DNA from: a virus
Lineage: Duplodnaviria; Heunggongvirae; Uroviricota; Caudoviricetes
DNA: 14,640 nt
IMG/VR virus record: IMGVR_UViG_2630968342_000015
Direction: 5' to 3' (one strand)
Shown here: one piece after another, positions 6,862 through 14,475 of the stretch
Numbering within the stretch: the first letter of the stretch is position 1
How the letters are laid out: each line of letters starts with the position of its first letter
Program-made: the position numbers and the translations under genes
Notes under the pieces: generated by a model
The model's database searches: none
The model's input: the letters and a program-made list of their open reading frames with translations, nothing else
Told to the model about the DNA's origin: nothing

Positions 6862-6909
6862 TTGTTCGTGGTTGTTCCACGTTGTTCACTGACAGGATCG
6901 GCATATTTT
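6862..6909 (+). promoter_or_regulatory. Phased TTGTTC repeats (6862, 6872, 6882) with candidate -10 TATTTT (6904-6909); putative activator-dependent head-operon promoter
   Basis: TTTGTTCGTGG TTGTTCCACG TTGTTCACTG at exact 10-bp spacing. Third unit sits 16 bp upstream of TATTTT. 15-mer TTGTTCCACGTTGTT recurs exactly at 14375-14389. Confidence 0.4.
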
Positions 6910-7062
6910 ACCCGAACTGAATCATGAGTATTCTCGCCCGTGGTGCCAGGACGCTGGGGCCACTTTCCCGCCTGTTAATGTGCTCGCCAATATTCATTAC
7001 CAGGCGGGAAAACGATCGGTGCGATTGCTGATTTCCTTATGAAAAACGGTTGAGTTTTTGCC

Positions 7063-7102: not shown

Positions 7103-8260
7103 ATGCCGAGAATAATCGAATTACGCCAGCAGAAAACCGCCATTAAAAATCAGATGCGCGACATGCTGGAGAACGCGGAAAAAGAAAACCGCAGCCTTAA
7201 CGATGCAGAGGGCGCAAAATTTGACGAATTACGCGCTAAAGCTGAATCCCTCGATAAAGACATTTCCCGCCTTGAAGCCATTGCAGACGAAGAGCGCAGC
7301 AAGCCAGGTAAAAGCAGCCAGACCACTGACCCGGCAGAACTCCGCAACTACATCCTGACAGGTGAAACCCGCGCATTAAGTACAGGCGTTCCCGCTGATG
7401 GTGGTTATACCGTTATCCCCGAACTGAACACCGAAATCATGCGAATGCTGACGGATGAATCCACCATGCGCCGCATCTGTACCGTGAAGAAAATCAGCAG
7501 CAACGAGTTTAAGCAGCTTGTTTCCGCTGGCGGTGCGACCGTTAACCACGGTGAAGAGGGTAAGACACGCGAACAGACCAGCACCCCGCAGATTAACGAG
7601 GTGAGCATTAAGCTGTATCCGGTCTATGCGTACCCGCGCACCACACAGGAAATCGTGGATTTTTCCGATGTGGACATCCTTTCATGGCTGACGGGTGAGA
7701 TTGGCGACACCTTCACGGAAACCGAAGAAAGCGATCTGGTTGTGGGCGACGGTGACAAAAAAGCAAAAGGTTTTTTATCCGTACCCCGTGCAGAGAAGAA
7801 CGACAAAGAGCGTGATTTTGGTACGTTGCAGGTAATTAAACCTTCCGAATCTCTGGCGTGGACATCTGCGGACCCGCTGATCGACCTGAAATTTGCATTA
7901 CGTAAAAAATACCGCAAAAACGCGGTCTGGGTGGTTAACTCCACGACGGCGGCAAAACTTCAGAAGGTGAAGAACGCGAACGGTGATTACATCTGGCGCG
8001 ACCGTTTACAGGCGGGTGATCCTGATACGTTGCTGGGCCTTCCGGTCGAATATCTGGAGTTTATGCCTGATAACGTTATTGCCCTGGGTGACTTCAAACG
8101 CGGTTACTACATTGTTGATCACGAAACAGGTGTTCGCACCAGACCGGACAACCTCACAGAGCCGGGCTTCATCAAAATTTTCACGCAGAAATATTTAGGC
8201 GGTGGCGTGGTGGATTCGAACGCGATCAAGATTCTGGAACTGCCACAGGACGACGATTAA
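7103..8260 (+). CDS. Major capsid protein, HK97 fold, with N-terminal scaffold-like delta domain
   Basis: 385 aa. Charged, coiled-coil-like N-terminal ~100 aa followed by a body recognised by eye as HK97-family. ATG 7103 preferred over the TTG at 7058 shown in the ORF track. Confidence 0.9.
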   Translation: MPRIIELRQQKTAIKNQMRDMLENAEKENRSLNDAEGAKFDELRAKAESLDKDISRLEAIADEERSKPGKSSQTTDPAELRNYILTGETRALSTGVPADGGYTVIPELNTEIMRMLTDESTMRRICTVKKISSNEFKQLVSAGGATVNHGEEGKTREQTSTPQINEVSIKLYPVYAYPRTTQEIVDFSDVDILSWLTGEIGDTFTETEESDLVVGDGDKKAKGFLSVPRAEKNDKERDFGTLQVIKPSESLAWTSADPLIDLKFALRKKYRKNAVWVVNSTTAAKLQKVKNANGDYIWRDRLQAGDPDTLLGLPVEYLEFMPDNVIALGDFKRGYYIVDHETGVRTRPDNLTEPGFIKIFTQKYLGGGVVDSNAIKILELPQDDD

Positions 8261-8314: not shown

Positions 8315-8872
8315 ATGAAGAGTATGGAAATCCGGTCATCGGAAATCACCACCAGCGCCAGCAACACGCTTACAGGCTACGTTGTTCGCTGGGATAAGCT
8401 TTCAGAGCTGCTATGGGGGGAGTTTTACGAAAAATTCCAGCGGGGAGCGTTTACTGAATGGCTTGCGGCGGGTAATGACGTTCGCGGCCTGTATGAGCAT
8501 GACCACAGCATGTTGCTGGGGCGTACCCGTTCCGGCACGCTGAAACTGGAAGAGGACGAAACAGGGTTACGCTTTGAACTGACCCCACCGGATACCAGTA
8601 CAGGGCGCGACGTTATCGAACTGGTTAAGCGTGGGGACATCTCGGGGATGAGCTTTGGCTTTCGCTCCCGTAAGGATGTATGGGATACCACAACAGATCC
8701 ATGCGTGCGCACCGTGCTGGTGGCGGAACTGTACGAAATTACCGTTACATCGGTACCGGCTTACCCTGATTCCGGCGTGGAGCTGGCCCGCCGTTCCCTG
8801 TATGAGCAGCACCCCGAAAAAATGCCGCGTGCGGATAATCGCCGCTGGTGGGTGGATTTAGCGGGGGTGTGA
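8315..8872 (+). CDS. Prohead maturation protease, HK97 family
   Basis: Position directly after the capsid gene; motifs LYEHDHS and GMSFGF are consistent with the His/Ser catalytic regions of this family. Start ambiguous (ATG at 8300, 8315 or 8324); 8315 has the best SD. Confidence 0.8.
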   Translation: MKSMEIRSSEITTSASNTLTGYVVRWDKLSELLWGEFYEKFQRGAFTEWLAAGNDVRGLYEHDHSMLLGRTRSGTLKLEEDETGLRFELTPPDTSTGRDVIELVKRGDISGMSFGFRSRKDVWDTTTDPCVRTVLVAELYEITVTSVPAYPDSGVELARRSLYEQHPEKMPRADNRRWWVDLAGV

Positions 8873-11319: not shown

Positions 11320-11441
11320 TGAGGCTGTATGACGGGGTGGGGGGCGTTTTCAGGACAAACCCGACCCCGCCGGGCACCGACCGCCTCCTCAAATTTTTAT
11401 GCACGGGAATTTTTTGAAAAATAATCTGACGAAAAATAAGC
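11320..11441. other. Candidate cos / packaging-initiation region between HNH and terS
   Basis: G-run GGGGTGGGGGGCG followed by C-rich CCCGACCCCGCCGGGCACCGACCGCC, then an AT-rich stretch. Placement between HNH and terS matches HK97-type cos phages. Exact cut site not identifiable by eye. Confidence 0.3.
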
Positions 11442-13456: not shown

Positions 13457-13738
13457 ATGACAGAAGCCGAAATAACGGGATTAATCCGCCGCGTTGCCGG
13501 AATCAGCCAGCAGGCTGACGAACAGGCCACGCAGCCGGACAGCGTGACAGCCGAAAACTATGCGCGTGTTGTTGCTGAGGTGATGCGCCGTGATGGTATA
13601 GAACTTAATGGCGTGGATATGCGCAACATACGAACCAGAGTTCTTGAGTTGCTGGCCTACCGTCGCCGCGTGGAGATGTATCGGGAGAAGGAGAAAATAA
13701 CGTACCACTGGAAGAAGCCGGAGCGGTTGCGGCGGTAA
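13457..13738 (+). CDS. Hypothetical protein (93 aa), last gene of the element
   Basis: ATG 13457 with SD GAGG. No recognisable family. Confidence 0.5.
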   Translation: MTEAEITGLIRRVAGISQQADEQATQPDSVTAENYARVVAEVMRRDGIELNGVDMRNIRTRVLELLAYRRRVEMYREKEKITYHWKKPERLRR

Positions 13739-14030
13739 CTGGTTGATATTCCCGACGGACCAAAAATGGGTGGCTACATCCCTCGCTTCTGAGGACTGTT
13801 AACAAGCTGCCTGAAAGACAGTCACAAACTACGAAATTTTCGCAGTTTAATTAATGATCAGCTTAATCGCTAACCCGCTGATATTTTCGGAAACCTCAAT
13901 TTGAGGAAGTCGGCGCGGTAACTCGCTGAACTTTAAGCAAAGTGCAAAATTGCGCTTGCTGAATAATCATTATGATTACGCAGATGATTAAGGAATGACC
14001 GAAGGCGGAAATTCGCCTGTGGTTAATGGG

Positions 14031-14144
14031 GGAGTTGCAGATCTGCAACTCGACCATGAAACTACGGAAACTACCCGTAGTTTGGGTAGTAAGAGTAACA
14101 CCCAGATTTTGGGTCTTACTCGTGATACCCAAATTTGGGGTATC
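14031..14144. promoter_or_regulatory. Cluster of palindromes in the right noncoding arm
   Basis: Perfect 20-bp palindrome GAGTTGCAGATCTGCAACTC (14031-14050). 9-bp inverted repeat AAACTACGG / CCGTAGTTT (14059-14083). Two related palindromes ACCCAGATTTTGGGT (14100-14114) and GATACCCAAATTTGGGGTATC (14124-14144). Confidence 0.45.
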
Positions 14145-14361
14145 AGTGGCAACCATAACGACTTTCGTTACGGTTGATGCTTTTACCCCATTGGGGGAAA
14201 GGTATTACGATAATCATAACACCTACCGAACAGGTAAAGCCCACCAGCCTGATTAACGTTTAACCGGAAAAAAATTCCGGTAGGTGGGGATCCCCATATC
14301 GACATTAACGCCCCTCATGAATTGGTGCGCTTCCCCCTGGAAAGATGATCCGCCTGTATAT

Positions 14362-14457
14362 TTCTTGTGTCTATTTGTTCCACGTTGTTTCATACAGTGC
14401 ACCGAACGGTGTAGTCACTGGTGTAGTCATTTTGCGATTTTTGGCACTTTTTGCGGT
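14362..14457. repeat. Right-arm repeats near the junction: TTGTTCCACG TTGTTTCATA (14375-14394), tandem GGTGTAGTCA(C/T) (14408-14418, 14420-14430), TTTTGCG repeats
   Basis: Read directly. The 15-mer at 14375-14389 is identical to 6872-6886. Candidate integrase/excisionase arm-type sites. Confidence 0.4.
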
Positions 14458-14475
14458 GAAAATTATTTAATTAAA

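Follow-up and report, generated by a model that had tools for sequence, protein, structure and literature searches.

A conserved cassette of four palindromes in the noncoding right arm of Escherichia coli PICIs

RESULTS

The island and its right arm

The window, by which we mean the whole stretch of 14,640 nucleotides analysed here, is, from its annotated neighbourhood, an E. coli capsid-forming PICI (cf-PICI) of the EcCIEDL933 kind, inserted in tqsA. The cf-PICI family, including islands of this kind, has been described (bioRxiv 10.1101/2022.09.08.507074). The island genes run in the order integrase, AlpA, D5-type primase, SSB, major capsid, protease, portal and head–tail proteins, followed by HNH, TerS, TerL and a 93-aa hypothetical protein. 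The landmarks of the right end are:

13457–13738, plus strand: 93-aa ORF, last of the conserved genes in E. coli PICIs; assigned to phrog_1561 and without Pfam family
14027–14149, plus strand: palindrome cassette of about 123 bp, with sharp borders set by homology
14375–14500: att-proximal apparatus, separate from the cassette and next to the tqsA junction
14497–14640, minus strand: tqsA 5' fragment, on the junction side of the att region

The noncoding right arm is the 758-bp stretch that separates the 93-aa ORF from the att junction. The first-pass annotation had described a stretch of about 760 bp lacking a credible ORF, and this was borne out, since the RefSeq annotation carries no feature between the 93-aa ORF and the tqsA fragment and the ORFs of the arm gave neither a Pfam nor a PHROG match. 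A search for tRNA and tmRNA genes found none. Several E. coli strains carry positions 13739–14500 (762 bp) in the chromosome at 100% identity, next to a truncated tqsA, and right-arm DNA was matched in 1326 of 5426 complete E. coli genomes, about one quarter. A sliding fold scan picked out three strongly structured regions in the window, namely the arm, the ori region and the stretch that precedes the capsid gene. We also asked whether the 93-aa protein might be an N-like arginine-rich RNA binder acting on the hairpins; a BLASTP comparison with an approximate lambda N query gave no alignment, the protein has no Pfam family, and this candidate was dropped. The AlphaFold model of the protein (pLDDT 59) was too poor for a structure search.

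A dense cluster of palindromes

Within the cassette we distinguish four palindromes, HP1 to HP4:

14032–14051: HP1, perfect spacer-less 20-bp palindrome GAGTTGCAGATCTGCAACTC
14059–14089: HP2, in which AAACTACGG (14059–14067) pairs with CCGTAGTTT (14075–14083); holds ACTAC twice and GTAGT twice
14071–14076 and 14084–14089: overlapping inverted repeat of HP2, CTACCC/GGGTAG
14093–14121: HP3, GAGTAA-C-ACCCA-GATTT-TGGGT-C-TTACTC
14100–14104 and 14110–14114: inner arms of HP3, ACCCA/TGGGT
14124–14144: HP4, GATACCC-AAATTTG-GGGTATC
14128–14139: perfect 12-mer CCCAAATTTGGG inside HP4

This anatomy agrees with what had been noticed at first reading. The perfect 20-mer is present, although its start had been put at 14031, one base early; the two sets of inverted repeats in HP2 were located and do overlap; and the two further palindromes with related arms correspond to ACCCA/TGGGT at 14100–14114 and GATACCC..GGGTATC at 14124–14144. 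The 20-mer had been judged improbable by chance, with an expectation of about 0.01, and our own figure for 14.6 kb is close to this (about 0.014, from 14640 x 4^-10). The 758-bp arm holds six perfect palindromes that are gap-free or centred on 1 nt and have at least six pairs, as against seven in the other 13.9 kb. Shuffled arms contained 0.39 on average and at most four, and none of 2000 shuffles reached six. For perfect palindromes without a spacer, the density in the arm is about 16 times that of the remaining part of the window. The cluster is real and non-random.

The enrichment of spacer-less palindromes points to a role at the level of DNA, because an RNA hairpin needs a loop, whereas a dyad that runs through its centre is a feature of double-stranded DNA. 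The segment 13996–14155 folds at a z of about -8 for both strands and for both RNA and DNA, which would also suit a structure formed by a single strand. One such possibility is a part in replication, with the palindromes acting as hairpins of single-stranded DNA or as extruded cruciforms that might, for instance, signal priming or pausing. The z of the DNA fold (-8.2), the lack of strand bias among mismatches in the arm hairpins (16 G.T versus 19 A.C) and the presence in the island of a D5-type primase (primase-helicase) and an SSB are consistent with this. However, the ori with its iterons lies at 5240–5480, 8.5 kb away, nothing ties the cassette to replication, and many PICIs replicate without it, so that we consider a replication signal improbable.

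Distribution and genomic position of the cassette

When the arm was compared by BLAST with the 5426 genomes, it split into modules with independent distributions, and 14027–14149 behaved as one block. This block was found in 706 genomes (13%) at 75–100% identity, in a median of one and at most six places per genome. Absence of the palindromes from related elements had been named beforehand as an outcome that would speak against a function; they are conserved in hundreds of related islands.

Cassette contexts were drawn from genomes, viral contigs and metagenomes. Flanking sequence was sufficient in 142 copies; 140 of these have the 93-aa ORF upstream and in the same orientation, and the same count places these copies in PICI right arms. 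An exception is L063, in which the cassette begins 55 nt past a Nu1-like small-terminase gene that is there the last gene. The distance from stop codon to cassette is 51–55 nt in PICIs of the L002, L005 and L063 types. Carriers include cf-PICIs with their own terminase (the window, L005 and L006), classical PICIs with an Rpp/Nu1-like protein that are inserted upstream of clpS (L002), and a PICI embedded in a prophage capsid gene (L004). They thus differ in packaging systems, integration sites and integrases, while the order and orientation of the cassette are constant across three PICI classes. In some arms the cassette is repeated in tandem at a distance of 434 nt, and in L004 it is separated from attR by a 762-bp Abi gene. 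Conversely, many PICIs with the same 93-aa ORF, such as the classical PICI L003, do not carry the cassette.

The cassette matched none of 50,697 phage records, and the six plasmid records with a match include none predicted to be mobilizable. A profile scan of viral contigs for divergent homologues returned close relatives only, a metagenome scan added few new variants, and a contig scan with a single protein query gave one locus. The cassette seems to be confined to Escherichia/Shigella PICIs.

Relation to cos and att sites

The palindromes had been proposed to form part of the excision or packaging machinery, and we therefore compared their position with the cos and att signals of these islands. 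The att-proximal apparatus contains:

14375: repeat TTGTTC-N4-TTGTT
14408–14429: doubled GGTGTAGTCA motif
14474–14486: perfect IHF consensus near the att core

The doubled motif may be compared with one described earlier (PMC10111431). The TTGTTC repeat also occurs before the late operon and between int and alpA. The att-proximal sites lie 230–350 bp to the right of the cassette, whose end is about 260 bp to the left of the GGTGTAGTCA and IHF motifs. The lambda-type cosN GGGCGGCGACCT has no match within two mismatches anywhere in the window, and the cos of this cf-PICI is likely the G/C-rich HNH–terS gap at 11320–11441. In the classical PICI L003, exact copies of lambda cosN are found at 7544–7567 and 8411–8434, upstream of the 93-aa ORF.

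A perfect palindrome could serve as a symmetric nicking site, and the arm does hold IHF consensus sites. However, the cosN copies of the classical PICI stand upstream of the 93-aa ORF. PICIs with different packaging proteins (cf-PICIs with a P27-family TerS/TerL, others with only a Nu1/Rpp-like protein) share the cassette, and many PICIs with the same ORF lack it. The att-proximal motifs occupy their own segment at 14375–14500, and in L004 the Abi gene separates the cassette from attR. With cosN-like sites elsewhere, att motifs 230–350 bp away and a gene that can intervene, the proposed excision or packaging role was not upheld. We rejected the cos reading, and membership of a cos or att site is the least probable of the readings that we weighed.

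Variation within the cassette

We collected 43 distinct variants of the cassette, mostly at least 90% identical. The stems of HP1, HP2 and HP4 are near-invariant across them, while centres and loops vary. The centre of HP1 is GATC, GATT or AATT by variant, with a symmetric change from GATC to AATT in the L004 lineage, and that of HP4 is AAATTTG, AAATAAA, AAATATA or TAATATTAT. Two lineages lack one 9-nt copy in HP2 (GAAACTACG). HP4 is swapped for unrelated palindromes in L006 and L013, and the pairing of HP3 is lost in the L004 lineage though its sequence is kept. The sole compensatory change seen affects HP4, where an A–T pair is replaced by C–G (GATACCC/GGGTATC to GATCCCC/GGGGATC), and the intermediate was also found. 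The minimum-free-energy RNA fold contains a long-range pair, TTTGGGTA/TACCCAAA; the A-to-C change in HP4 speaks against it, as its compensation is local and the long-range pair would be lost.

Covariation analysis, which had been suggested as a check, gave a divided answer. In a 29-row alignment, 88% of the cells are paired, compared to 30–41% in slid controls. Only one pair shows a double change, however, and the covariation score, from an alignment of low diversity, falls below the mean of shuffled controls. With 43 variants of such high identity, comparisons of this kind have little power to test a DNA-level role either. Separations of 2 nt and 9 nt both occur between the arms AAACTAC and GTAGTTT.

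Conservation of the cassette goes beyond that of its surroundings. It is 92–93% identical where the adjacent 93-aa ORF is 81% identical, and this therefore indicates either strong constraint or recent exchange. By codon position, the ORF is 87% identical at positions 1 and 2 and 67% at position 3; set against the third positions, the identity of the cassette means that sequence is kept, and not pairing alone.

A possible RNA-level role

These data bear on the possibility that the cassette acts as RNA. Together with the hairpins upstream, it could form the structured 3'-UTR of a long rightward (late/packaging) transcript, where it might block 3'-to-5' exonucleases, help to stop or insulate transcription ahead of attR and the host gene, or give rise to a 3'-UTR-derived RNA. 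Its constant, co-oriented position downstream of the last late gene, at 51–55 nt past the stop codon in L002-, L005- and L063-type PICIs, fits such a role, as do the excess of paired cells, the retention of stems while loops vary, the compensatory change, the exchange of whole hairpins for others, the fold z of about -8 and the variable spacing of the AAACTAC arms. Other observations count against it: many of the palindromes are perfect through the centre, G.U and A.C mismatches show no strand bias, covariation does not exceed that of shuffled controls, HP3 in the L004 lineage has lost its pairing and kept its sequence, and conservation is greater than a generic stabiliser would need.

Searches for known RNA elements gave no match to support an RNA-level role. 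At the gathering threshold, Rfam 15, including the C4/IsrK/P4 CI-type immunity RNAs, had no match in the window. Relaxing the search to E<=10 on 13700–14520 gave chance matches only, and the arms of six related loci gave nothing. A terminator scan found no plus-strand site in the cassette and one weak minus-strand site at HP3, a count not above that in shuffled sequence, and the cassette hairpins are without a plus-strand U tract. We therefore set aside an intrinsic terminator within the cassette. In the PICI L002, a G+C-rich hairpin with a T-rich tail follows the cassette, which would again suit the end of a transcript. A structured noncoding RNA, one of the functions first proposed, found no positive support, given the blank Rfam search, the single compensatory pair and wobbles without strand bias. 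The cassette may still be part of a 3'-UTR, and we regard a 3'-UTR role as possible, a close second among the readings considered here.

A protein-coding reading

The cassette could instead encode a small protein, for example a type I toxin. The translation in frame +0 is (M)GELQICNSTMKLRKLPVVWVVRVTPRFW.., an internal start lies at 14056 and the candidate peptide is MKLRKLPVVWVVRVTPRFW; in L002-type PICIs this frame is the in-frame extension of the 93-aa ORF beyond its TAA stop. Synonymous changes are most numerous in frame +0 (15 of 34; P about 0.02, or about 0.05 after six-frame correction), all five differences between the window and L004 in the first nine codons fall on third positions, and 29 of 30 loci have an in-frame distance of 51 or 54 nt from the stop codon. 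In contrast, 5.8 billion proteins yielded only 13 near-identical, sporadic ORF calls, all at least 81% identical, and no divergent homologue. The L004 lineage has a stop 13 codons after the internal ATG, PGAP calls, where there are any, lie in another frame, and neither Pfam nor PHROG gave a match. Three frames are open simply through palindromic composition. Since the synonymous excess is marginal, the frame is stopped in L004 and the matches are near-identical only, we rejected a convincing gene in the cassette and hold a coding function to be very improbable.

The cassette belongs to a modular array

The remainder of the arm is likewise built of palindromes, so that the whole 758 bp form an array:

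13733–13780, plus strand: arm unit 1, box TAAC-N4-TGATATT over the stop codon of the ORF, then a short hairpin
13736–13748: reverse complement of the unit 1 box, a perfect IHF consensus (TATCAACCAGTTA)
13824–13848: palindrome AAACTACGAAATTTTCGCAGTTT, with arms as in HP2; perfect in other PICIs
13868–13915, plus strand: arm unit 2, box with one mismatch to the IHF consensus and two-tier hairpin TTCGG-AAA-CCTCA-ATT-TGAGG-AAG-TCGG
13916–13998, plus strand: arm unit 3, degenerate box, hairpin AGCAA-GTGCAAAATTGCGC-TTGCT, then a perfect palindrome
13964–13978: perfect palindrome TAATCATTATGATTA after the unit 3 hairpin
13999–14023, plus strand: G+C-rich hairpin CCGAAGGCGGAAATTCGCCTGTGG
14152–14300: second arm module with a separate distribution, hairpin CAACCATAACGA..TCGTTACGGTTG plus CCCCATTGGGGG and CCGGAAAAAAATTCCGG
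14241–14248, minus strand: Chi site in the second arm module
14285–14296: palindrome TGGGGATCCCCA in the second arm module

In L002-type PICIs the hairpin CCGAAGGCGGAAATTCGCCTGTGG comes after the cassette and is the one followed by the T-rich tail (TTACTTATT). HP3 and HP4 (CCCA-N-TGGG with an A/T centre) resemble palindromes of the upstream arm units.

We aligned 68 distinct arms and extracted their units. A unit measures about 45–50 nt and consists of the box TAAC-N4-TGATATT and, at a fixed distance, a hairpin of one or two tiers. The stems of these hairpins are wholly different between units (CCTCA/TGAGG, CAGCC/GGCTG, CGCAA/TTGCG, CCCA/TGGG, GTGCA/TGCAC and TTCGCC/GGCGAA are examples) while pairing is kept. 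This free covariation is typical of selection for single-strand structure; it favours an RNA-level role and counts against a DNA-level one. Later units each retain the last bases of the ORF and therefore arose by duplication or recombination.

Read on the opposite strand, the box is the IHF consensus WATCAANNNNTTR, and its four variable nucleotides fall exactly at N4. In the first ~300 nt of 82 distinct arms the consensus occurs at 2.9/kb, compared to 0.08/kb in upstream coding DNA, and all 72 of the sites in the arms have a single orientation. The window has only two perfect matches (13736–13748 and 14474–14486), and both are in the arm. As consensus matches, these are putative IHF sites.

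Arm unit 2 has a counterpart in phage DNA. Positions 13879–13913 match at 32 of 35 nucleotides within roi of HK620, H-19B, Stx phages and others, and unit 2 and its relatives are about 83% identical to HK620 roi over 46 nt, as aligned by eye. The matching segment of roi holds the sole IHF consensus of the HK620 locus, beside the same palindrome. The Roi protein of HK022 reportedly binds inside its own gene, beside an IHF site. We rejected the idea that the arm units are remnants of a minus-strand roi-like gene, as stops interrupt the frame; the similarity of a translated peptide (RLPQIEVSENISGL) arises because nucleotide identity is about 90% over 35–50 nt.

An array that grows by duplication could also be repeat DNA that is selfish or nearly neutral. 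Duplication, template switching and inter-satellite recombination would have made its palindromic units, which would be tolerated as filler adjusting the genome to the size of the small capsid and would serve no specific function. The arms are indeed mosaics of duplicated units whose extra members carry the last bases of the ORF, the cassette itself is doubled in tandem in some arms, its borders are sharp, an exact Chi lies within 25 nt upstream in 39 of 81 distinct arms, and many PICIs with the same ORF lack it. On the other hand, the cassette is far better conserved than neighbouring third codon positions, its stems are kept in 43 variants with a compensatory change among them, and its order and orientation are constant in three PICI classes. 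We consider mere filler unlikely.

DISCUSSION

A double-stranded DNA array as the favoured reading

The feature reported here is real, widespread and previously undescribed. The reading that we favour, with a probability of roughly 0.35, is that the cassette acts as double-stranded DNA, as an array bound by proteins and IHF. The cassette is a discrete conserved unit of four short DNA palindromes. It forms part of a modular array, specific to PICIs, which occupies the untranslated right arm from the last late gene to attR. This array consists of units made of an oriented IHF-consensus box and a palindrome, plus larger palindrome cassettes, and grows and reshuffles through duplication and recombination between satellites. 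The four palindromes may then be a set of dyad-symmetric binding sites which, with the neighbouring IHF sites, form a protein–DNA array, the binders being dimeric DNA-binding proteins of the helper phage or of the satellite, perhaps of the Roi, Bro or AlpA kind. The anatomy, conservation, distribution and modular make-up are observed, and cos, att, the Rfam families and an intrinsic terminator are excluded; that the cassette acts as DNA, that IHF binds and which protein might bind are what we infer.

Several observations argue for a DNA-level role. Spacer-less perfect palindromes are enriched in the arm, mismatches show no strand bias, and the centre of HP1 changed symmetrically in the L004 lineage. 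The cassette is conserved beyond what pairing asks, and it follows the 93-aa ORF in nearly all copies across differing packaging systems and integrases. IHF consensus sites are dense in the arms and uniformly oriented, with both perfect matches of the window among them, and unit 2 is homologous to a box-plus-palindrome segment of lambdoid roi.

The suggestion that the palindromes are operator sites for a dimeric regulator fits these DNA-level signals best, and the part of it that stands is the dyad symmetry (the perfect 20-mer and 12-mer, and the 16-fold enrichment). The part that does not is the regulatory setting. We found no credible promoter at the cassette, no other copy of any of its half-site pairs near a promoter or elsewhere in the island, and no candidate regulator in a Pfam scan of the island. 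No cognate protein or binder was found, and the cassette itself matched none of the 50,697 phage records. At least four different palindrome sequences would demand several proteins, and the 2-nt and 9-nt separations of AAACTAC/GTAGTTT suit hairpins better than rigid dimers. The array is also located where the 3' end of the late transcript must fall, and its high identity could be explained by recombination instead of selection.

A more specific proposal is that the right arm, cassette included, is a decoy or sensor array that captures DNA-binding proteins made early by the helper phage. Phage regulatory sites, in tandem copies and variants that each join an IHF site to a palindrome bound by a Roi/Bro-type protein, would then serve to sense helper induction or to unbalance helper autoregulation, and the sites of the cassette could be meant for proteins of helpers still absent from phage databases. 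We think this improbable.

Significance

A literature search with the arm sequences returned no relevant paper, and the available PICI literature does not mention the region; in these intensively studied islands, the DNA between the last late gene and attR has been treated as empty. The arm instead shows order, conservation and recombination, and about one complete E. coli genome in four carries such an array. Binding of IHF and phage proteins by the array would add a new layer to satellite–helper interaction; as a 3'-UTR, the array would control the output of the packaging operon. On either reading, it marks the boundary of a region into which accessory genes, for example Abi in L004, are inserted, and it offers a convenient signature for locating PICI right ends.

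Comparison with known systems

Several known systems share features with the arm. The operators of dimeric phage regulators (Cro, CI, C-protein) are likewise clustered dyads of 12–20 bp with centres more variable than their arms, but the cassette is not at a promoter, has no second copy in the island and comprises four unrelated sequences. The roi locus of lambdoid phages, with its IHF site and palindrome, shares with arm unit 2 the box, the spacing, the two-tier palindrome and the position of the IHF consensus. This homology concerns the upstream units and not the cassette, however, and the PICI unit is noncoding, tandem and variable in the sequence of its palindrome; the Roi and IHF sites are putative. 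With structured 3'-UTRs and REP-stabilised transcripts the arm has in common a stable chain of hairpins, here between the last gene of the operon and att, whereas the cassette is without covariation above control. Retroregulation by lambda sib is a distant analogy: int lies beyond attP and is read away from it, so that a sib-like arrangement is inapplicable.

The closest kind is the extragenic mosaics of palindromes and IHF sites known as BIME or RIP. In E. coli, these extragenic elements combine REP palindromic units with an IHF-binding L motif. Like them, the PICI arm is extragenic, lies at the 3' end of an operon, combines palindrome mosaics with an IHF site (here as consensus matches), varies in the number of its tandem units and could act both as DNA and as RNA. 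It differs in sequence, as no resemblance to the REP consensus was seen by eye; in distribution, as the cassette is confined to PICI right arms (140 of 142) and REP is found in hundreds of dispersed chromosomal copies; and in symmetry, since the PICI palindromes are often perfect and spacer-less. It also comes without a RAYT transposase.

Chi sites in the window and beside the cassette

The window holds 14 exact copies of Chi (GCTGGTGG) in 14.6 kb, against an expected 0.52, and the shuffled sequences contained at most three. This corresponds to approximately one Chi per kb, several-fold above the average density of the E. coli chromosome. Exact matches occur at:

873, 2034, 4917, 5797, 6272, 8716, 8844, 9848 and 13071, plus strand
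4234, 6131, 8349, 10293 and 14241, minus strand

In 39 of 81 distinct arms, that is, the untranslated DNA leading to attR, an exact Chi also lies at most 25 nt upstream of the cassette, the block of four palindromes. Such an abundance could shield a satellite lacking Gam against RecBCD, or it could act as a motor of mosaicism.

A putative origin and the end of the early block

Directly after the primase gene, positions 5240-5480 look like a replication origin. At least ten copies of CTGTTCACC, an octamer shared with the type I iterons of P4, are found there in both orientations around A/T-rich DNA, and no other segment in the window is as structured (z = -10.6). Two further elements lie at the end of the early block and ahead of the capsid genes:

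6816-6843, intrinsic terminator (CAGCCGGAGCAATCCGGCTTTTTG) closing the early/replication block
6964-7011, inverted repeat with 17-bp arms, 94% complementary, in the capsid operon leader

Repeats near the att junction

The repeat TTGTTC-N4-TTGTT(C/T), which has a 10-bp period, is restricted to three places in the window; the last of these is followed by two other elements towards the att junction:

1295-1310, repeat between int and alpA
6862-6887, repeat upstream of the capsid (late) operon
14375-14390, repeat in the right arm, close to attR
14408-14429, doubled motif GGTGTAGTCA with 12-nt spacing
14474-14508, perfect match to the IHF consensus at the att junction, together with the A/T palindromes ATTTAATTAAAT and GTTATATATAAC

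Near attR, three copies of the TTGTTC repeat are present in L002, a classical PICI upstream of clpS, and in L124, another PICI. The repeat is a plausible candidate site for AlpA or another activator/RDF. Doubled GGTGTAGTCA was also found in L002, L124 and L003 (a classical PICI without the cassette), all of which have other integration sites. In the host DNA beside L002, between clpA and infA, a solitary CRISPR-DR4 repeat (L002 12437-12464; Rfam RF01317, 50 bits) adjoins tRNA-Ser.

The 93-aa ORF and cassette arms in other loci

The ORF preceding the arm (13457-13738) encodes a helical 93-aa product whose basic tail, Y-x-W-K-(K/T)-P-E-x-L-R-R, is invariant. The product has no Pfam family and falls in a PHROG family without known function, and the ORF is present in PICIs of every packaging type. 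Its ..RRRSQQRRES.. variant is nearly always followed by the cassette; in a biased sample, this held for 43 of the 44 distinct arms.

In the related locus L014 (4527-5083), an insert is flanked by two cassette copies 434-436 nt apart, an arrangement that recurs in L034, L055, L087, L219 and L310. The insert comprises three copies of TTGCGGGTTA with a 21-nt period, an A/T-rich stretch and three inverted copies of ATAACCCGC, and so resembles either an iteron/origin cassette or an operator cassette. In L004, a PICI located in a prophage major capsid gene, a gene lies between the cassette and attR:

L004 6246-7007, minus strand, abortive-infection family gene

The arm is therefore also a slot for accessory or defence genes.

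Likely packaging sites

By analogy with HK97-type phages, the cos site of the window's capsid-forming PICI is likely the gap between HNH and terS:

11320-11441, G/C-rich HNH-terS intergenic gap (GGGGTGGGGGGCG ... CCCGACCCCGCCGGGCACCGACCGCC)

The classical O157:H7 PICI L003 carries exact copies of lambda cosN:

L003 7544-7567, plus strand
L003 8411-8434, minus strand

These copies, inverted relative to each other, flank an Rpp/TerS-like gene, in agreement with the cos1/cos2 arrangement reported for EcCICFT073.
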